Assembly (NCBI GenBank): GCA_964401675.1
Contig: CAYNZD010000002.1
Span: 1-38,506, forward strand
Length of the DNA stretch: 38,506 nt
DNA from: Candidatus Woesearchaeota archaeon
GTDB lineage: Archaea > Nanobdellota > Nanobdellia > Pacearchaeales > GW2011-AR1
Direction: 5' to 3'
The translations under genes were made by a program, and so were the position numbers. The first letter of the stretch is position 1. Each line of letters starts with the position of its first letter. Below, piece by piece: positions 4,897 to 28,695 of the stretch. The notes under the pieces are model-generated. The model was not told the DNA's origin and did no database searches. It saw nothing but the letters and a program-made list of their open reading frames with translations.

Positions 4897-5160
4897 TTAA
4901 GCATCAAATTTAAGTTGAAACATTCCTGATAAGTTACAAGTTTCACATTCACCAGCAATTATCAATTCTAGCATTACATGATACAACATATCTTGTGTGC
5001 CACTTATTTCAGAACCAAAACGCTTTTCTACAAGAATATAATCTCTACCATCATCCAAATCTCCCAATCTTAACCCGTCAGAGTTAGAAGTTATTTGGAT
5101 GTTGCCAATACCTCTAATTAAATTAGCATAAATTCTTTTGGTGTATTTAGAAGCATACAT
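4897..5160 (-). CDS. Hypothetical 87-aa protein between psmA and SBDS
   Basis: Same-strand ORF that exactly fills the gap: 1 nt after the psmA stop, ending 34 nt before the SBDS ATG. I recognise no family motif. It contains CETC. Confidence 0.4.
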   Translation of the reverse strand: MYASKYTKRIYANLIRGIGNIQITSNSDGLRLGDLDDGRDYILVEKRFGSEISGTQDMLYHVMLELIIAGECETCNLSGMFQLKFDA

Positions 5161-5161
5161 T

Positions 5162-5857
5162 TTATTCTAACTCCTTCCCACTCAGCTTTTCAATCTTCCC
5201 CTTGCTTAAAATCCCAGCATCAAATCTATTAACATCAAACTCATCACCCTGAACTTCCTTAAAAATTTCCAAAATTAACTTAATTCCCTCTTTCGAACTC
5301 ATGTTTTCCCGATATTTCTCTCTCAATAATTTCTTAAAAGTATCATCATTCTCTCCGATGGCGTTGGCTCTGTGTTTTAAATAATTTCCAGTAATATCTG
5401 TTGTATACAAAACAGGTCCATCATTAATGCCAGCAAACATCATTGAAACACCGAAGGGTCTTGCTCCGCCATATTGCGTAAATTGCTGCTTAATATCAGC
5501 GATATCTCGAACAATCGATTCAGTACTCGGAGCTGAATCATAAGTCATCCTATGTTGCTGTGCTAAAACTCTTGCCTTTTCAATCAAAACTCTCGCGTCA
5601 GAGCTAATTCCCGCCGATACCGCAATAATATGCTCATCAACCTCATTAATTTTATTAGCAGACTCTTCAATTACCAAAGAATCTTTTTTTCGTCGGTCCG
5701 AAACAATCACAACACTATCTTTGCATAAAATTCCAATTGAAGCAGAGCCAAGCCTAATCGTTTTCTCCGCATATTCAACCTGTAAAATATGTCCATCAGG
5801 CGCGAACATCGTAGCCGCTCGGTCATATCCCATTTGTTGGTGTTGTATATCATCCAT
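5162..5857 (-). CDS. psmA: Proteasome subunit alpha
   Basis: N-terminal YDRAATMFAPDGHILQVEYAEK signature of alpha-type subunits. 231 aa. Confidence 0.93.
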   Translation of the reverse strand: MDDIQHQQMGYDRAATMFAPDGHILQVEYAEKTIRLGSASIGILCKDSVVIVSDRRKKDSLVIEESANKINEVDEHIIAVSAGISSDARVLIEKARVLAQQHRMTYDSAPSTESIVRDIADIKQQFTQYGGARPFGVSMMFAGINDGPVLYTTDITGNYLKHRANAIGENDDTFKKLLREKYRENMSSKEGIKLILEIFKEVQGDEFDVNRFDAGILSKGKIEKLSGKELE

Positions 5858-5910: not shown

Positions 5911-6195
5911 TTATCTTTTTAATCCACTCAGTGTTCCACTAACTTTTTCAATCTTAATTCCAGCCAAAGCTAGTGCGGCTCGGATATCTTCCAATGATTT
6001 TACCAAACAACTTCCAACCAGCCAACTAGAAAAATCCTTTGTAGTAACTTTCATATAAGCAGATTTCGCAAAACCAAGAATACCAATATATTCCAAAATC
6101 GCCGCCTCAACTTTCGCGTTACTAGTCTTAACTAAAAAATACCTTCTCTTATCTCGAGCCGATGGCTTAAGCTTAAGTTTTTTTATTTTTGCCAT
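5911..6195 (-). CDS. RNase P protein component 2 (Pop5/Rpp14 family)
   Basis: LKPSARDKRRYFLV at the N-terminus and VSGTLSGLKR at the C-terminus resemble archaeal Pop5. It sits immediately upstream of psmA, as in the conserved archaeal superoperon. Short at 94 aa. Confidence 0.75.
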   Translation of the reverse strand: MAKIKKLKLKPSARDKRRYFLVKTSNAKVEAAILEYIGILGFAKSAYMKVTTKDFSSWLVGSCLVKSLEDIRAALALAGIKIEKVSGTLSGLKR

Positions 6196-9166
6196 GTTTT
6201 TTCTTACGTTTCTTACGTTTCGAAGTTTTTAATTTCTTTCTATTCAATTTTATAACAACAAAAACAACGGACGCTAAAATAATAATCAAAACAACAACCA
6301 CCCAAAAATAATCTTTAATCACTAAGACTTCAGTTTCGACAAATTCTTCTTTAACAACTTCAACAACTTTTGCCTCAATTGGCTCACTAATTAATTGAAT
6401 TGTCAATTTCGCAGAATCCTCAGCAATTTCCTCTAATTTAACAAACAAGTCATAATAATCTGCCGAAGTCAAATTCAATTTAGCCGATTGCCCAACACCT
6501 AATTTCAAGTTTATGGGTTCACTTTCAATAGTTAAATTAACGTAATCGCCGCCAACTTCATTGATAGTCAGCAAATGTTGCCCGCCTTCAAAATCAAAAA
6601 TACTAAAACTTATTTTCTCATCTTTTTTCAAACTTTGAGTATGACCTTTAGCTGCTTCAATAACCGCCACTTCATAAATTTTAGGAGCAGAGGAAACACT
6701 TACGGAACTACCTCCGCCTCCACCTCCCCCGCTCGAAGTTGGAACAACCGGAGGAGAATTTATTATAAATGAAATTGTAGAAGAATTTCCAGTATTTCCG
6801 GTGCCATCACTACAATTAACATAAGCATTATGAGCTATAGCACTCAACCCAGAAACAGAAATAAGATTCGCTCCGGAATTATTAATAATATTTGTATTCA
6901 AGGTTCCAACATTATCAATATAAACGCTACAATTAGAAACAGGATTTAAATCAGAAACATTAAAACTAAATACAATAGTCGTAGATGTTCCAGTTGCAAC
7001 CTCAGATAAATTAATTATAGGGTTGGTCACATCAAAAGTTATACTAAAATTATTTTCAGCCGAAGAATTATATGAATCATTATTAACAGTCAAGCAATTC
7101 CAGGAATAATCTTCCTCCTCGGTAAATGTAAAATTAAATGTGGTAGCATTAGTTATCCCACTAATATTTTTTGTTTCATTTTTAACTAATGCACTAGAAT
7201 TCCAAAGATAAAAAGTTACATTAGAGAGTTCATAAATTTCTTCAGAACTTAAATTACAACTAAAATTAGTTTCATTAACATTAGTATAGATATTATCCGA
7301 GGGGCTGATAAGGTTGACAAAAATTCCACCAATAGTTAAAGTATAATTCGATGTTGCAAAATCAGAATTTCCTACATTATCATAACTAAAACAATTCCAA
7401 TAATAAGTATTATAGGATAAATTTAAAATATTGATTTCCGTTTGATTTTCTGTTCCGGAAATATTAAAATTCGTTTGATTAATTATATCTTTGGAAGAAT
7501 TCCATAAATAAAAAGTTATATTCTTTAATCCGAAAGTATCTACAACATTACAAATAAAAGTTTGATTTTTTATTGGAGTAATTTTATTATTAGATGGAGA
7601 AATAAGAGAGACATTTGGAGCAGTAGTATCTACGGTGAAGGTTCTTGTTTCAGAGGTATTTACTATACCGAAATTATTTTCCCAAAAAATTATATTCCAA
7701 TAATAAATTCCCTCCAATAAATTAAGAATAAATGAATTAGATGTCCCATTAATTACAGAATTGTTTGTTCGATTGAGATGACTATTAATAGTTAAATCGT
7801 AACTTGAACTTGTAGAATTTTTATTATTAATTGTAAAATTAAATGTTGTTTGATTAATCTTCGTAAAATAATTTTGCAAAGGAGAATTAAGGTTTATACT
7901 TGGTTTAAAATTTGGAGGATTTACAGTATCTACATATTGAACGTTATCACCTATATTACAATTCATATCATAACGAACCTTAAAATAACCATTTACCCCA
8001 AGACCAGTAGTTCCCCAACTATTCTTTATAATCCAATAGCTAGTGGAGTCGTTTCCAGTATTATTATATCCCATTAAGACAACTGCATGATTACTCGTGT
8101 TAATAGGACTACAATCCAAGAATCCTTCTTCGTCTATATTATCTGTCATATATAGAGATACAGAAAGTGCCCCATAATCAATAATCCCTTGTTGAAGCTC
8201 ATCATTTGTAAAATCAGAATACACCCCAGGGTAATTTCCGCCTGAAATATTCCACAATCTTTCATTAGAATCAGAACATTTACCCGAGCATAAAGAATCT
8301 TCTGCCGTATAAGGAAAGCAGTTTTCATCAGAGATTCCATTAGTTTTAATAAAATCTAATGCAAGACCAAAATAACCACCACTACAACCACCTTGGTAAG
8401 AATTATTATTGGAAATGTCATAATACGAATTATCACACGAAACCAAATTCTGCTCAGATAAATCAGGATTCAATCGTGAATTATTTTGATTAATATTATA
8501 TTTTGCTTCCACTGCACCAACAGTAGAAAAAGCCCAACAACTTCCACAGCTTCCTTGATTCTTCACAGAAGTCATCCATCCACGAGATACATTATCAAAA
8601 AAAGTGAAATTCGCCTTGCTGTATTTTGTCCCATTCGGAGGATCTCTCCAATCCCAATAAGAAAAATTAGAAGTAGAATATTCCGAACCTACCTCTAAAC
8701 TACTACTAACACTTTCTATATCTTGAGAAACGCTCAAAACTTCAGGCCTTGCGGAATATACATCCGAAATTTTTGTTATAGAACTCTCACTTAATTTTTC
8801 ATCCAATCCCATCATTTTTGTCATAGGAATTTCTTTGTTATTTAACAAATTTGTCCTATCCCTTGATGCCAAATTTTTTTTAGGAACACAAATCGCTTGC
8901 CCATTTCCTGTTTTAGTATCATATCCTTGTTGCGCACAATAAGAGTACGCTTTTCCTACCTTTCCCCTTAAAAAATTCCATTCATCTAGTTTAGCACCAT
9001 CAGGAGTAATACATAAACCCTGTTCTCCTGCAGATATTTTTTTAATTTCATAATTATATCCAAGTTCTTTACAGTAAACCGCTGCAGGATTCTTTAATGC
9101 CGAACATATACCGCCAAGTAAAATTATTCCAAAAAATAAAATTATCAAATACTTAATTAACTTCAT
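6173..9166 (-). CDS. Membrane-anchored secreted papain-like (C1) cysteine protease with N-terminal DUF333 module(s), four beta-sandwich-like repeats and a C-terminal TM anchor
   Basis: Signal peptide MKLIKYLIILFFGIILLGGICSA. DUF333-like NPAAVYCKELGY...CITPDGAKLDEWNFLRG plus a half copy YSYCAQQGY...AICVP. C1 motifs NQGSCGSCWAF (Cys210, nt 8537-8539), NHAVVLMGY (His360), IKNSWG (Asn382). Repeats at residues ~415-803, a G7 linker, a TM segment at residues ~955-973 and a K-rich tail. Confidence 0.85.
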   Translation of the reverse strand: MKLIKYLIILFFGIILLGGICSALKNPAAVYCKELGYNYEIKKISAGEQGLCITPDGAKLDEWNFLRGKVGKAYSYCAQQGYDTKTGNGQAICVPKKNLASRDRTNLLNNKEIPMTKMMGLDEKLSESSITKISDVYSARPEVLSVSQDIESVSSSLEVGSEYSTSNFSYWDWRDPPNGTKYSKANFTFFDNVSRGWMTSVKNQGSCGSCWAFSTVGAVEAKYNINQNNSRLNPDLSEQNLVSCDNSYYDISNNNSYQGGCSGGYFGLALDFIKTNGISDENCFPYTAEDSLCSGKCSDSNERLWNISGGNYPGVYSDFTNDELQQGIIDYGALSVSLYMTDNIDEEGFLDCSPINTSNHAVVLMGYNNTGNDSTSYWIIKNSWGTTGLGVNGYFKVRYDMNCNIGDNVQYVDTVNPPNFKPSINLNSPLQNYFTKINQTTFNFTINNKNSTSSSYDLTINSHLNRTNNSVINGTSNSFILNLLEGIYYWNIIFWENNFGIVNTSETRTFTVDTTAPNVSLISPSNNKITPIKNQTFICNVVDTFGLKNITFYLWNSSKDIINQTNFNISGTENQTEINILNLSYNTYYWNCFSYDNVGNSDFATSNYTLTIGGIFVNLISPSDNIYTNVNETNFSCNLSSEEIYELSNVTFYLWNSSALVKNETKNISGITNATTFNFTFTEEEDYSWNCLTVNNDSYNSSAENNFSITFDVTNPIINLSEVATGTSTTIVFSFNVSDLNPVSNCSVYIDNVGTLNTNIINNSGANLISVSGLSAIAHNAYVNCSDGTGNTGNSSTISFIINSPPVVPTSSGGGGGGGSSVSVSSAPKIYEVAVIEAAKGHTQSLKKDEKISFSIFDFEGGQHLLTINEVGGDYVNLTIESEPINLKLGVGQSAKLNLTSADYYDLFVKLEEIAEDSAKLTIQLISEPIEAKVVEVVKEEFVETEVLVIKDYFWVVVVLIIILASVVFVVIKLNRKKLKTSKRKKRKKKHGKNKKT

Positions 9167-9605
9167 TTAAATTACATTCTCCTCTGTAAAATGCCCATTC
9201 TTCACATTCTGAATTATTTGAAAAAATACAAACTCCATATTGGTTTCCTTGTGCATCATTTCTAATTTCTAATTTATAACCTTGTTTTACACAATAAGTA
9301 GAAGCGGGATTTGCAAATCCAACTTTTTGTTTTTCATCCCAAGCAACCTCACAAGTTCCATCGACAGTCTTACAACTTCCTTGTCCACAATCCAAAGTTC
9401 CTGGCTCACAATTTTCCGTACAAAAAACCCCACTACAATTTGGTGCCTCGCTTGCCGAAACACATTCAGTTGCATGACAACAGCTGGCGGGAACACACTC
9501 AATTTCCTCTTCTCCATTCCATTCCCCGACAAACCAAAAAAATCCTACAACTAACAAAACTCCCATAACAATAATTGTCCCAATCAGTCCCCTTTTATTC
9601 ATCAC
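9153..9605 (-). CDS. Secreted/anchored Cys-rich protein with C-terminal DUF333 (putative hemolysin family) domain
   Basis: N-terminal hydrophobic anchor. Cys-rich module ECVPASCCHATECV...CSGVFCTENCEPGTLDCGQGSCKTVDGTCEV. C-terminal NPASTYCVKQGYKLEI...GVCIFSNNSECEEWAFYRGEC matches the DUF333 pattern. Overlaps the protease gene start by 14 nt. Confidence 0.7.
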   Translation of the reverse strand: MMNKRGLIGTIIVMGVLLVVGFFWFVGEWNGEEEIECVPASCCHATECVSASEAPNCSGVFCTENCEPGTLDCGQGSCKTVDGTCEVAWDEKQKVGFANPASTYCVKQGYKLEIRNDAQGNQYGVCIFSNNSECEEWAFYRGECNLNEVN

Positions 9606-19810: not shown

Positions 19811-20791
19811 TTATTGACTTTTATTAAGAAAAACTTCTAAGTGTTTTTTATTCTTATTCGCAATCTCTAGATATTTTTCTCTGCTAGTGCTATTAACAGC
19901 ATAAACTGCAGACCACAATAATCTTTCCTTATTAGCAAACTTCTTTTTAAAAATATATGATCCAGAATGACTAATTGCACTCGCCCCATAATCTATTAAG
20001 GGAATATCCCTTGTGACAGCTTCTTCAATAATTCTTAAGTGCAAAAGTTCATTCGCGTGACAATACTGAAACTCTCTCAATGAGACACCTCTTAAATTGA
20101 AAATTTTATTTTTATCAATAATACTAATTCTACCAGCAATAACCCTACCTTCTTTCTTCGCAAGTAAAAATAGTAGTTTATCAGAAGGAACTTTTTCATA
20201 AATACCCTTCCAATAATTCAGCGGTTTTGCAATTGAATTATTTCTTTTCATAGTTTCTTTTTCCAAAGTAAAATAAGACTCTACATCTTCCATAGAAGAA
20301 ACGTTAATAATTTCCAAGTTCTCATTTCTAGCTTTTCTGATTGCTTTCTTTAAGATATTTCTTTTCTTAGTTCTCTCTAAGTTGCTCCAAAAGCCATCAA
20401 TAGAAGATACAGTTAGCTCTGGATAGATGTAAGATGGATAAATAATAAACCCCACTTTAGATAAGGCCCTTGCCTGTTTTTCGGAAATATTATCAATGAT
20501 CACTGTATTGCATTTTAACTTCTTAAATTCTTTAATATATCTTTCAATATTATTTTCAAAATAAATCTTTTCGGAAACAAACCGTGGCATACAATAATAA
20601 TCATTATTGATTCTGGATAATCCAAGAAAAGATGTTATACTTCCATTATTACTTTCATAGAAATAAATAGGGTATTCCTCGTTTCTTTCTAAAAATTTCA
20701 ACCAAAATTTATTATAAAAAAAATTTGTTTTATGCTTCTCGGTAAATTCATCGTAACCTTTGACATCCTTTATTTTATTTGCGACTATCAT
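19811..20791 (-). CDS. FemAB-like / Acetyltransf_6 (CelD-like) GNAT-fold transferase
   Basis: HANELLHLRIIEEAVTRDIPLIDYGASA...GSYIFKKKFA matches the FemAB-family C-terminal hallmark. The ATG at 20791 lies ~26 nt downstream of a TATA-like box; the ORF is open to a GTG at 20809. Confidence 0.55.
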   Translation of the reverse strand: MIVANKIKDVKGYDEFTEKHKTNFFYNKFWLKFLERNEEYPIYFYESNNGSITSFLGLSRINNDYYCMPRFVSEKIYFENNIERYIKEFKKLKCNTVIIDNISEKQARALSKVGFIIYPSYIYPELTVSSIDGFWSNLERTKKRNILKKAIRKARNENLEIINVSSMEDVESYFTLEKETMKRNNSIAKPLNYWKGIYEKVPSDKLLFLLAKKEGRVIAGRISIIDKNKIFNLRGVSLREFQYCHANELLHLRIIEEAVTRDIPLIDYGASAISHSGSYIFKKKFANKERLLWSAVYAVNSTSREKYLEIANKNKKHLEVFLNKSQ

Positions 20792-20811
20792 ATTCCTATA
20801 TCCTAACACTC

Positions 20812-27396: not shown

Positions 27397-28695
27397 ATGA
27401 ACAAAAAAATATTAACAATTGGAATAGCCTTTCTAATGGTAGCTATCGTAACTACTACAGCAGCATTGTTCCTTTTTCCTTATCAACCAGACCAACCACC
27501 ACAATCTGATAATAATGACTCAACACAAAGTGGAATTCAGCAAGTTGTTAATGCCAATAACCAATTTGCGTTTGAACTGTATTCAGAATTAGACAAATCT
27601 GAAAAAAGTAATATTTTCTATTCTCCTTATAGTATTTCTGCCGCTTTGGCAATGACTTACGAAGGAGCAAAAGGACAAACTGCAGAAGAAATGAAATCTG
27701 TTTTCCACTTTCCAGAAAATGATGTTTTAAGACCTAACTTTGCCGCAATTTACAATAATATAAATAAAGAACCCAAAGAATACCAATTAAGCACTGGAAA
27801 CGCTTTATGGGCTCAATATGATTATCAGTTTCTTGAAGATTACACAAGTAGAGTAGAAAAATACTATGGTGGAAAAGTAGCAAATTTAGATTTTGTTTCT
27901 AAACCTGAAAAATCAAGGCAGACTATCAATTCATTTATTGAAGAACAAACCAATAATAAAATTAAAGATTTAATTCCGGCAGGAATTCTCAATTCAATGA
28001 CAAAATTGGTTCTTACTAATGCTATCTATTTTAAAGGCGCTTGGGAGTGGGAATTCAGCAAATCAGATACGCATGAACAGGATTTCAAAATAACTCCAAC
28101 CAATATTGTAAAAACTCCTATGATGTTTATGGAACCAGAAAAAGCAAGATTCAATTATGCAGATTTAGAAAAATTGCAGATATTAGAACTTCCTTACAAA
28201 GGAGAAAAAATTTCAATGTTAATCTTATTGCCAAAACAAGGAGAAGATTACGATGTTGAAACTGGAAGAAGAATTGTCTCTGATTATACCCTTAAAGATA
28301 TTGAATTGTCTTCTGAAAAACTTAATGAATATAAAACACAAATGCAAAGAACAAAATTAGATTCAATATCATTTCCTAAATTTGAATTTGATACTAAATA
28401 TTTTATGAAAGATGCATTAAGTGCTATGGGCATGCCTACCGCTTTTGGTGCTGCTGATTTTTCAGGTATGAATGGAATCAGCAGTTTATTTATTTCTGCA
28501 GTTATTCATCAAGCTTATATCAAAGTTGATGAAAAAGGAACAGAGGCCGCTGCCGCAACTGCTGTTATTGAGTCATTAAAATCGGCAATGCCTTCAAATA
28601 TATTCAAAGCAGACCATTCATTCGTTTTTATAATTCAAGAAAAAGAAACGGGAAATATTCTATTTATGGGAAGAGTTACTGACCCGAGTGAATAA
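27397..28695 (+). CDS. Serpin (inhibitory type) with N-terminal signal anchor
   Basis: NIFYSPYSISAALAMTYEGAKGQTAEEM. Hinge/RCL VDEKGTEAAAATAVIESLKSAMP (nt 28537-28600). C-terminal ADHSFVFIIQEKETGNILFMGRVTDP. N-terminal TM segment ILTIGIAFLMVAIVTTTAALFLF. Confidence 0.9.
   Translation: MNKKILTIGIAFLMVAIVTTTAALFLFPYQPDQPPQSDNNDSTQSGIQQVVNANNQFAFELYSELDKSEKSNIFYSPYSISAALAMTYEGAKGQTAEEMKSVFHFPENDVLRPNFAAIYNNINKEPKEYQLSTGNALWAQYDYQFLEDYTSRVEKYYGGKVANLDFVSKPEKSRQTINSFIEEQTNNKIKDLIPAGILNSMTKLVLTNAIYFKGAWEWEFSKSDTHEQDFKITPTNIVKTPMMFMEPEKARFNYADLEKLQILELPYKGEKISMLILLPKQGEDYDVETGRRIVSDYTLKDIELSSEKLNEYKTQMQRTKLDSISFPKFEFDTKYFMKDALSAMGMPTAFGAADFSGMNGISSLFISAVIHQAYIKVDEKGTEAAAATAVIESLKSAMPSNIFKADHSFVFIIQEKETGNILFMGRVTDPSE

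Follow-up and report, generated by a model that had tools for sequence, protein, structure and literature searches.

We find that a DUF333-based module of one and a half copies, here called the D-d unit, is dedicated to one clade of prokaryotic papain-family (C1) peptidases, to which it is either fused or supplied on a separate anchored protein, as judged from homologs and gene neighborhoods. The window, by which we mean the whole 38.5-kb stretch of DNA analyzed, encodes a fused example, an extracellular papain-family (C1A) endopeptidase of predicted activity that is stalked and anchored at its C terminus, together with a small Cys-rich partner. We found no paper describing the architecture of this protease/partner locus. 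The explanation that best accounts for the whole, a surface C1A protease with the D-d unit as a prodomain-like element, a swapped catalytic head, and a partner acting near the membrane, has in our judgment an even chance of being correct.

Locus and protease architecture

The gene pair occupies a conserved slot heading a pop5-psmA-SBDS string, with RNase J on the other flank (Table 1). Both originally described ORFs are present, with overlaps of 14 nt between the partner and the protease and of 23 nt between the protease 3′ end and the start of pop5, and these overlaps, together with synteny, point to co-transcription of the partner, the protease, and pop5. The 94-aa ORF downstream of the protease has no match in Pfam, but its ortholog profile matches archaeal RNase P component 2 structures (6k0a_A, 3wz0_C, and 2av5_A; E values of 1e-12 to 1e-10, best 1.2e-12), identifying it as Pop5, as had been proposed. 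It adjoins psmA, with synteny kept across relatives, and the reading of the locus as a two-gene surface module joined by overlaps to pop5-psmA describes an arrangement that relatives also retain.

Table 1. Features of the locus, with window coordinates and, for domains of the protease, residue numbers
Feature	Position	Strand	Residues	Description
Partner gene	9153..9605	-		150 aa from GTG, probably 149 aa from ATG at 9602; signal anchor + 10-Cys module + DUF333
Partner signal anchor	9525..9602	-		MNKRG/LIG...VGFFWFVG, highly conserved (alignments); Arg-Gly at the cleavage position of archaeal prepilin-type (class III) signal peptides
Partner 10-Cys module	9339..9500	-		CVPASCCHAxEC...CEPGTxDCGxGxC...C; no Pfam model
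Partner DUF333 domain	9174..9320	-		Classical 4-Cys type
Protease gene	6173..9166	-	1-997	Papain family, stalked, C-terminally anchored
Signal peptide	9098..9166	-	1-23	Sec type (sequence and hydropathy)
D-d unit	8786..9097	-	24-127	Full DUF333 (24-71), half copy (73-97), conserved helical LMxLxEK motif (107-126)
Ser-rich linker	8690..8785	-	128-159	Predicted disordered, pLDDT below 50
C1 catalytic domain	7931..8689	-	about 160-412	Pfam, cathepsin C alignment, homologs, structural model
Gln204	8555-8557	-	204	
Cys210	8537-8539	-	210	
His360	8087-8089	-	360	
Asn382	8021-8023	-	382	
Four repeats	6776..7909	-	420-506, 513-611, 617-710, 712-797	About 90-100 aa each, each predicted Ig-like (iterative profile)
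G7 linker	6710..6730	-	813-819	
stalkC	6317..6655	-	838-950	Membrane-proximal C-terminal domain, common to S8 proteases of sister genomes
TM helix and tail	6176..6310	-	953-973, 974-997	Lys/Arg-rich cytoplasmic tail
pop5	5911..6195	-		RNase P protein component 2
psmA	5162..5857	-		Proteasome alpha subunit; next gene after pop5 in the conserved string

Pfam places Peptidase_C1 (PF00112) at residues 192 to 411 of the protease (E = 9.8e-43; 147.2 bits against a cut-off of 20.7). The four residues originally named as a complete catalytic set fall on the C1 columns in the alignment with cathepsin C, where they correspond to the motifs NQxSCGSC, NHAV, and KNSWG, and all four are invariant in 36 homologs. 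The AF2 model of the protease matches cathepsins K, C, L, and S (Foldseek E value of about 1e-14, probability 1.00); its pTM is only 0.62, and it shows a disordered segment directly before the mature domain, whose DWR start is found at about residue 172. The I29 propeptide (PF08246) gave no Pfam match in the protease at E < 0.1; it is present in eukaryotic homologs, and the prokaryotic relatives have PF03891 (DUF333) instead. The suggestion that a Ser-rich linker takes the place of I29 held only in part, in that I29 is absent and residues 128 to 159 are disordered, but the stretch from 96 to 190 is not one linker, as residues 107 to 126 form a conserved and confidently modeled helical motif.

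The rest of the predicted architecture (four repeats, G7 linker, C-terminal domain, TM helix, and Lys tail) is all present. The four-repeat region contains 34 N-glycosylation sequons compared to 17.6 ± 3.2 in shuffled sequences, and this part of the stalk is probably glycosylated. With a signal peptide, a stalk of about 550 to 585 residues, a single C-terminal TM helix, and a basic tail, the protease is therefore predicted to hold its catalytic head away from the cell surface.

Coupling of the D-d unit to C1 peptidases

Pfam detects DUF333 at residues 25 to 68 of the protease (E = 1.7e-14; 54.3 bits against a cut-off of 25), and a purpose-built HMM finds the full copy followed by a partial one (HMM positions 5 to 33; E = 1e-3), in agreement with the 1.5 copies noted at the outset. 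The same 1.5-copy pattern recurs in most homologs of the protease. The full copy retains C32 and C52, whereas Leu and Val replace the other Cys pair, which most homologs keep.

The D-d unit is N-terminal to C1 in 116 of the 120 best homologs, while their C termini are variable, and it has ten invariant positions across 36 sequences. Fusions of this kind span DPANN, Methanosarcinales, Halobacteriota, Archaeoglobus, CPR bacteria, Chloroflexota, Acidobacteriota, and others. An exhaustive search with the D-d unit returned 2108 clusters; of the 150 best, C1 is present in 60, and small TM-anchored D-d proteins make up many of the others. At six loci (L048, L064, L085, L175, L177, and L180) the gene for such an anchored D-d protein comes immediately after a C1 gene, with an overlap or a gap of at most about 20 nt, and the C1 genes concerned lack both DUF333 and an anchor and have the C1 domain at the extreme C terminus. 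Four anchored D-d proteins were looked up, and all three on adequate contigs follow a C1 gene, the 1.2-kb contig of the fourth (P0333) being too short to judge. Since prokaryotic genomes seldom contain C1A genes (PMC10380794), chance adjacency of C1 and anchored D-d genes is very unlikely. In a crude neighbor-joining tree, without support values and with sampling biased toward similarity to the query, the cis and trans C1 domains group together, apart from most C1 domains that lack DUF333. Given the fixed place of the D-d unit in front of C1 and the separate anchored D-d proteins at six loci, we therefore conclude that it is coupled to C1 both in cis and in trans, in numerous uncultured archaea and bacteria, with fused forms outnumbering split ones. 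The DUF333 family as a whole is much wider than C1 and includes multi-copy proteins, stand-alone lipoproteins, and, for the partner type, neighbors of S8 proteases.

Head exchange and the Cys-rich partner

In sister genomes the protease encoded at the corresponding position, between the small protein gene and pop5-psmA and with RNase J as the outer flank, is an S8 subtilase whose stalk is homologous to that of our protease. Residues 510 to 955 of the protease are 47% identical to residues 425 to 867 of the syntenic S8 protease, whereas the flanking genes are far more alike (86-88% for RNase J, 74-83% for psmA, and 67-74% for pop5). That close relatives have an S8 head on this stalk at the corresponding location indicates an exchange of the catalytic head in situ. 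The layout of a Cys-rich gene, an S8 protease with repeats and stalkC, pop5, and psmA is seen at about 30 loci, and the pairing of a Cys-DUF333 gene with a DUF333-C1-stalkC gene recurs at L095 and L096 in a different genomic context. The stalked S8 subtilases (for example, L089 of GCA_018693315.1 and L094) share with our protease the slot, the upstream Cys-rich gene, and the pop5 overlap, as well as a homologous stalk, C-terminal domain, TM helix, and tail (35-52% identity), but they carry a serine protease head with its own N-terminal pro-region, and their partners usually lack DUF333. The D-d unit takes the position that this pro-region has in the S8 versions, among which L092 has a recorded I9 propeptide.

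Translation of the partner most likely begins with the ATG at 9602 and not with the GTG at 9605 first assumed, as all homologs start with MNKRG. Its expected signal anchor, dozen or more cysteines, and C-terminal DUF333 were borne out: there are 14 cysteines, ten in a separate module and four in DUF333, where both pairs are present, and Pfam locates DUF333 at residues 96 to 143 (E = 4.5e-21; 75.3 bits against a cut-off of 25). The 10-Cys module is a new family, and DUF333 is an unstudied module. The former occurs alone (about 90 aa), duplicated, or joined to DUF333 in either order. The AF2 model of the partner has a pLDDT of 89 (about 90 for the 10-Cys module), and a PDB fold search with it gave a best match at E = 0.29, with no solved relative and no inhibitor or prodomain fold for either DUF333 or the Cys module, which is weak evidence because small domains score poorly in Foldseek.

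Relatives of the partner mostly lack DUF333; at 23 loci their genes precede an S8 subtilase gene, and at 7 they immediately precede pop5. No recognized protease is downstream of 17 of the 55 Cys-rich genes, pop5 comes directly after 7, and the partner therefore does not strictly need a protease. Across these loci the new family usually accompanies stalked proteases of either catalytic class, and since it goes with S8 or C1 and sometimes with no protease, the partner is not a dedicated C1 inhibitor. A reading of the partner as a small C1-specific DUF333 protein is not supported: the core of the partner is the Cys-rich module, and a separate small DUF333 gene is directly upstream at fewer than 10 of roughly 50 C1 loci (fused or DUF333-adjoining). 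The functional tie proposed between DUF333 and the protease is supported for the 1.5-copy unit of the protease itself, but not for the DUF333 of the partner.

Proposed mechanism and alternative explanations

In the mechanism that we favor, the D-d unit would bind the C1 domain in the manner of a prodomain, as a folding chaperone and/or an inhibitor that keeps the enzyme latent, working in cis at the present locus and in trans at the split loci. The disordered Ser-rich linker may be the site at which the unit is released, and the partner may be translationally coupled to the protease. Because it is tethered only a few residues from the membrane, the partner is likelier to work near the membrane, at the stalk base or in export, than on the active site of the mature enzyme.

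The D-d unit could instead be a targeting or adhesion module for a substrate, glycan, or host-surface ligand, with no regulatory part, and the stand-alone anchored D-d proteins adhesins that share an operon by chance. Its placement at the far N-terminal end of stalked proteins would suit this role, as would the occurrence of DUF333 in multi-copy arrays and many protease-free proteins, the association of partner-type DUF333 with S8 as well as C1, and the failure of the fold search with the partner model to detect an inhibitor-like fold. A general adhesin should, however, turn up beside many kinds of enzyme and at many positions, whereas the order and spacing of the D-d unit relative to C1 are strict in hundreds of proteins whose other domains vary, and anchored D-d proteins adjoin anchorless C1 genes at all six informative loci, so we regard targeting as unlikely. 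A pure docking connector, comparable to cohesin-dockerin, that holds a secreted C1 enzyme on an anchored scaffold and survives in fused proteins as a leftover of gene fusion is a slim prospect. At the trans loci the protease has no anchor while the D-d protein has a stalk and a TM helix, and the C-terminal C1 domain adjoins the D-d N terminus encoded by the next gene, as such a connector would have it; in fused proteins, which are the majority, a connector would be redundant, yet there the unit is strongly conserved.

For the partner, an analogy with staphostatins and propeptide-like inhibitors would have its DUF333 domain act on the C1 head as a cognate inhibitor or in imitation of a pro-region, as first suggested. 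DUF333-bearing partners are found at 3 of 3 C1-type loci, and none of 23 Cys-only partners is paired with C1 (Fisher P = 0.017, for loci that are not independent); the gene overlap suggests coupled translation, and small DUF333 genes also precede fused proteases at L005, L007, and L068. We nevertheless consider this role quite unlikely, given that DUF333-bearing partners also precede S8 proteases at 6 loci, that the DUF333 of the partner is of a different subtype from the D-d unit, that a small DUF333 gene is missing from most fused C1 loci, and that the partner domains sit by the membrane while the head is on a long stalk. Least probable, in our view, is a type IV pilin-like partner with a class III signal peptide cut after Arg-Gly, its helix in or on a pilus-like structure that carries or organizes the protease. 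By eye, MNK-R-G followed by LIGTIIVMGVLLVVGFFWFV and about 20 hydrophobic residues in all conforms to the archaeal rule, in which position -2 is charged and position -1 is G, A, or S (PMC4371748), and the hydrophobic domain is nearly invariant across the partner family, as reported for co-assembling Haloferax pilins (PMC4371748). The best PDB profile match is a type IV pilin helix, at a nonsignificant E value of 0.45, but any signal anchor can resemble a class III signal, no pilin-like globular fold was detected, and the 38.5-kb window holds no prepilin peptidase, PilB, or PilC genes.

The prodomain-like reading of the D-d unit can be set beside known systems. Papain/cathepsin L-type C1A zymogens with I29 have the same catalytic fold and Gln-Cys-His-Asn set as the present protease and likewise an extension that separates the signal peptide from the mature DWR start; here, however, that extension is a disulfide-bonded 1.5-copy DUF333 unit, a helix, and a disordered linker, and a long stalk and TM anchor are added. 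Of the solved structures, the one closest in sequence is cathepsin C (dipeptidyl peptidase I; 3pdf_A, E = 2.7e-28 over the catalytic domain alone). Its exclusion domain is a precedent for a retained non-I29 N-terminal domain that shapes access to C1, although no similarity was found outside the catalytic domain and this soluble, tetrameric enzyme has a separate propeptide as well. Cwp84 of Clostridioides difficile is a surface-located C1A protease that matures the S-layer and, by description, resembles our protease in having extra C-terminal domains that hold it at the surface; it differs in its propeptide, in anchoring through cell wall-binding repeats, and in having no known DUF333 or comparable partner gene. 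A hydrolase gene followed by one for a dedicated binding protein, the layout of the trans loci, is also seen for lipase with the membrane-anchored Lif foldase and for staphopain with staphostatin. Staphostatins work in the cytoplasm and Lif on lipases, and we found no sequence or fold relation to either system; the function of the D-d unit is inferred.

More broadly, the D-d unit may represent an unrecognized class of prodomain or steric chaperone-inhibitor for a large clade of prokaryotic papain-family enzymes, in cis or anchored in trans, with DPANN-type archaea swapping whole S8 or C1 heads, and the accessory domains that match them, on a surface stalk that is conserved. We put this forward tentatively, as somewhat short of an even prospect; if true, it would provide the first function for part of DUF333. 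The enzyme would most likely degrade external protein for a metabolically reduced cell or trim surface proteins of its own cell or a host. A host- or prey-directed role is speculation, and a nutritional one is at least as likely. In DNA-SIP, Woesearchaeota took up label from protein despite encoding few extracellular peptidases (PMC8359207).

A predicted stalked papain-like protease

Both open reading frames of the original prediction, a 150-aa Cys-rich partner and a 997-aa protease, were recovered as described, and the overlaps of 14 nt between partner and protease and 23 nt between the protease and the following ORF proved exact. A Pfam search of the 997-aa protein identified Peptidase_C1 with an E of 9.8e-43, and alignment placed Gln204, Cys210, His360, and Asn382, the proposed catalytic set, on the catalytic motifs of cathepsin C. 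These four residues are invariant in an alignment of 36 sequences, and an AF2 model of residues 1 to 420 matched cathepsins in Foldseek at an E of about 1e-14. Pfam likewise found DUF333 on both proteins, and an HMM built from homologs resolved the "1.5 copies" of the protease into one full and one truncated copy, a pattern seen again in most of its relatives; the full copy has lost one of its two Cys pairs. The Ser-rich linker held for a disordered stretch, but residues 96 to 190 do not form the single linker proposed, as they include a conserved helical motif modeled at a pLDDT of about 91 (alignment and AF2 model). We refer to the full DUF333 copy, the half copy, and an LMxL helix (residues 24 to 127) as the D-d unit. 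The mature domain begins at a DWR motif.

Features of the locus and of other genes in the window
Feature	Window position (strand)	Protein residues
Cys-rich partner ORF	9153-9605 (-)	150 aa
Partner ATG (MNKRG...)	9602 (-)	
Partner 10-Cys module	9339-9500 (-)	
Partner DUF333 (Pfam)		96-143
Protease ORF	6173-9166 (-)	997 aa
Protease DUF333 (Pfam)		25-68
Full and truncated DUF333 copies (HMM)		24-71, 73-97
Conserved helical motif		107-126
Disordered Ser-rich linker		128-159
DWR, mature start		about 172
Insertion after DWR	8597-8674 (-)	about 165-190
Peptidase_C1		192-411
Repeats R1-R4	6776-7909 (-)	420-506, 513-611, 617-710, 712-797
G7 run		813-819
TM helix		953-973
Basic tail		974-997
Pop5 ORF	5911-6195 (-)	94 aa
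Conserved ORF between psmA and SBDS	4897-5160 (-)	87 aa
FemAB-like/GNAT protein	19811-20809 (-)	
Serpin	27397-28695 (+)	432 aa

The four predicted repeats, the G7 run, the TM helix, and the basic tail were all located. The repeats are invisible to plain self-BLAST and required an iterative profile, and a Pfam search of residues 413 to 997 returned no match at E < 0.01; an NCBIfam search with three proteins gave nothing useful. The repeats contain 34 N-X-S/T sequons versus 17.6 ± 3.2 in shuffles, an excess expected of a glycosylated archaeal surface protein. The protease can be described as a complete, exported, stalked, and membrane-anchored C1A enzyme, as predicted from its sequence.

A conserved operon slot and a Cys-rich companion

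Sister genomes show the same order as the window, a divergent RNase J gene followed by a small Cys-rich gene, a large protease, pop5, psmA, and SBDS, with a Peptidase_S8 of about 910-1000 aa as the protease in this slot. Identity to the sister proteins is 86-88% for RNase J, 74-83% for psmA, and 67-74% for pop5. One sister subtilase aligns over its residues 425-867 with residues 510-955 of the window protease at 47% identity. Of the four repeats, the aligned region takes in R2 and R3, and it extends through the linker, C-terminal domain, and TM helix; the sister protein has a different domain where R4 stands. Stalk identity between genomes is only 35-52%, far below the 67-88% of the flanking housekeeping proteins, which indicates that the stalk evolves fast. 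Since the stalk is shared and the head differs, we conclude that a swap with S8 exchanged the catalytic head and, along with it, the first repeat; the stalk that carries the head is conserved but evolves fast, and the operon slot is conserved as well.

The overlap between the protease 3' end and pop5 is also conserved (loci L089 and L094, for example), and an identical protease is present on at least 24 metagenomic contigs with gene order unchanged. The proposed transcriptional continuity with pop5-psmA agrees with these overlaps and with synteny, which are what the claim rests on. The nearest named relatives of the window proteins come from Pacearchaeota, Nanoarchaeota, and other DPANN MAGs. 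The 94-aa ORF after the protease had no Pfam match at E < 0.1 and was identified as Pop5 by an ortholog profile matching the solved archaeal RNase P component 2 (PDB 6k0a_A, E 1.2e-12); the Pop5 of this lineage was recognized only through that profile.

The partner probably starts at an internal ATG, judging from its sequence, as this start matches every homolog. Its conserved core is a 10-Cys module, CVPASCCHAxEC...CEPGTxDCGxGxC...C, distinct from DUF333, in which all ten Cys and the His are invariant and which follows a nearly invariant signal anchor (MNKRGLIG...VGFFWFVGE). No Pfam model exists for this family, whose relatives are encoded on at least 380 metagenomic stretches, with the module solo, doubled, or joined to DUF333 in either order. 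Among the best 120 partner relatives, the Cys module stands alone in 82 (about 90 aa), follows DUF333 in 15, precedes DUF333, as in the window, in 3, and is doubled in 1; the other 19 have DUF333 only (14 with one copy and 5 with two). The partner AF2 model has a pLDDT of 89, and its best match to PDB folds had an E of 0.29; the partner sequence had no match in the PDB and the Cys-rich profile nothing significant.

The gene after the Cys-rich gene, in 55 distinct evaluable metagenomic loci, encodes an S8 protease in 29 and a DUF333-C1 protease in 2; in 7 it is pop5 directly, with no protease, and in 17 it was not recognized. A DUF333-bearing partner occurs at all three C1-type loci (the window, L095, and L096) and also at six S8 loci, and none of 23 Cys-only partners is paired with C1 (Fisher p = 0.017, with loci that are not independent). 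The expected conservation of the gene pair was borne out by L095 and L096, where the same pair lies in another genomic context, so partner and protease move together as a module. The fused proteases of L005, L007, and L068 are likewise preceded by a small DUF333-only gene, which most fused loci lack. A conserved Cys-rich companion accompanies the protease.

The D-d unit in cis and in trans

The D-d unit is N-terminal to C1 in 116 of the 120 best protease homologs, with a linker of roughly 80-110 residues between the two, and the C-termini of these homologs are highly diverse (Ig-like, beta-helix, PKD, TSP3, and P-domain, among others). When one genome per species was scanned, the DUF333-C1 module turned up in Nano-, Nanohalo-, Aenigmat-, Micr-, Pace-, and Woesearchaeota, in Methanosarcinales, Halobacteriota, and Archaeoglobus, and in bacteria that include CPR groups, Chloroflexota/Anaerolineae, Ignavibacteria, Zixibacteria, Acidobacteriota, and Gemmatimonadota.

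An exhaustive search with protease residues 22-130 as the query found 2108 D-d clusters. The best 150 of these comprise 60 with C1, 41 with multicopy DUF333, and 49 with the D-d unit only. Many of the latter are proteins of 160-330 aa with a signal peptide, D-d, an LMNL motif, a TM helix, and a basic tail, often with a Cys-rich stalk (CGDGxC...CPxDC) ahead of the TM helix. Wherever context is visible, the anchored D-d gene comes directly after a Peptidase_C1 gene, with an overlap or a gap of at most about 20 nt, and this C1 gene encodes a signal peptide, accessory domains, and a catalytic domain at the extreme C terminus, with neither DUF333 nor an anchor. This layout was found in L048, L064, and L085 from the genome scan and in three of four hits that were inspected from the exhaustive search (L175, L177, and L180), the fourth contig (P0333, 1.2 kb) being too short to judge. 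Prokaryotic genomes have about 0-3 C1A genes each (PMC10380794), so the adjacency is very unlikely to be due to chance. In a crude NJ tree with biased sampling and without support values, the six trans-type C1 domains group with the cis-type domains, away from most of the C1 domains that lack DUF333. A C1-dedicated D-d module exists both fused to the protease (in cis) and on a separate anchored neighbor (in trans).

We considered and rejected the insertion of roughly 15 residues between DWR and NQGSCGSCW (PPxGTxYxxxNFxFFDxxxxGW) as a docking-site marker of D-d-associated C1 domains. The gap from DWR to the active site is 27-28 residues in the DPANN-type subclade versus 12 elsewhere; the insertion is confined to that subclade and missing from trans-type and most cis-type enzymes.

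Several further loci were observed. The anchored D-d proteins of L048 (6726-7793, Moraniibacteriota), L064, L085, L175, and L177 have stalks of repeated CGDGxC...E.Y..CP.DC modules, and that of L048 weakly matches the LPXTG anchor (PF00746, E 1.4e-5). In L072 (3813-6208, Methanosarcinales), a 124-aa DUF333 protein overlaps the start of a DUF333-less C1 protease by 4 nt, a sign of either a genuine split of the fused form or a frameshift in the assembly. Micrarchaeota contigs OY970229.1 and CAILMQ010000031.1 encode very large DUF333-C1 proteins (L013, L014, and L015; 2262, 2021, and 1255 aa); L014 and L015 share one contig, and in L013 the gene immediately after also starts with D-d, which suggests tandem arrays of such proteases.

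Possible roles and other genes of the window

We propose that the D-d unit would bind the C1 domain in the manner of a prodomain, as a foldase and/or a latency inhibitor. This reading is suggested by the constant position of the unit between signal peptide and catalytic domain, which is the place of the S8 pro-region (an S8 version, L092, has an I9 pro-region on record), by the disordered, cleavable-looking linker that joins it, and by the split loci, where the anchored neighbor of an anchorless protease carries it. The split layout resembles that of a lipase with its Lif foldase or of staphopain with staphostatin. A targeting or adhesion module is a rather unlikely alternative to the prodomain-like role, and a mere connector or docking element is highly improbable, as it leaves unexplained the strong conservation of D-d in proteins where a covalent link is already present.

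Tethered no more than about 10 residues from the membrane, the partner more likely acts at the base of the stalk or during export than on the mature head. The inhibitor role first suggested for it seems improbable to us. Its N terminus conforms to the archaeal prepilin-type cleavage rule (PMC4371748), which gives a lead toward a pilin-like protein, the reading we find least probable of all. The package as a whole, with a prodomain-like D-d unit in cis or trans, a head swap, and a companion partner, we regard as evenly balanced between right and wrong.

The enzyme family itself is known. Databases already show the domain combination, under labels such as "C1A family cysteine protease/putative hemolysin" or "DUF333 domain-containing protein." Full-text literature searches on DUF333/PF03891/COG3042/IPR005590/yoaF found no functional study, nor did we find a paper discussing the DUF333-C1 architecture; a review of papain-family evolution covers multidomain prokaryotic C1 proteins, including those of DPANN, and does not mention DUF333 (PMC10380794). 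Three features appear to be undescribed: the dedicated coupling of D-d, in cis and trans, to a C1 clade; the replacement of an S8 head by a C1 head on a common stalk where the pop5-psmA string begins; and the family of Cys-rich companions.

A prokaryotic genome encodes few C1A peptidases, and these enzymes have received little study. The D-d module, which accompanies C1A in archaea and bacteria alike, both in cis and in trans, is a concrete, testable candidate for keeping I29-less prokaryotic C1A enzymes latent, and DUF333, a family without known function, gains a first functional context. DPANN-type archaea depend on external nutrients or hosts, and their one surface protease on a stalk probably serves as a key interface; it is wired into the pop5-psmA-SBDS string. 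The exchange of a subtilase for a papain head in place, on a fast-evolving stalk, shows how such an interface diversifies, and the companion is a new family worth characterizing.

The window (GC about 33%) contains archaeal housekeeping genes, among them those for PsmA, SBDS, an RNase J-like nuclease, MCM, aRF1, and RadA, a Mre11/Rad50-like pair, a topoisomerase, and ValRS. About 18 kb from the surface protease lies a serpin gene (PF00079, E 2.7e-113), whose product could regulate the reduced archaeon's own or foreign proteases. A FemAB-like/GNAT protein (PF13480, PF02388, and PF04339) is also encoded in this archaeal window; the FemAB-like family is linked to peptidoglycan peptide bridges. 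The conserved ORF between psmA and SBDS has no Pfam match, and an ORF of equal size occupies this position in L001 and L094.
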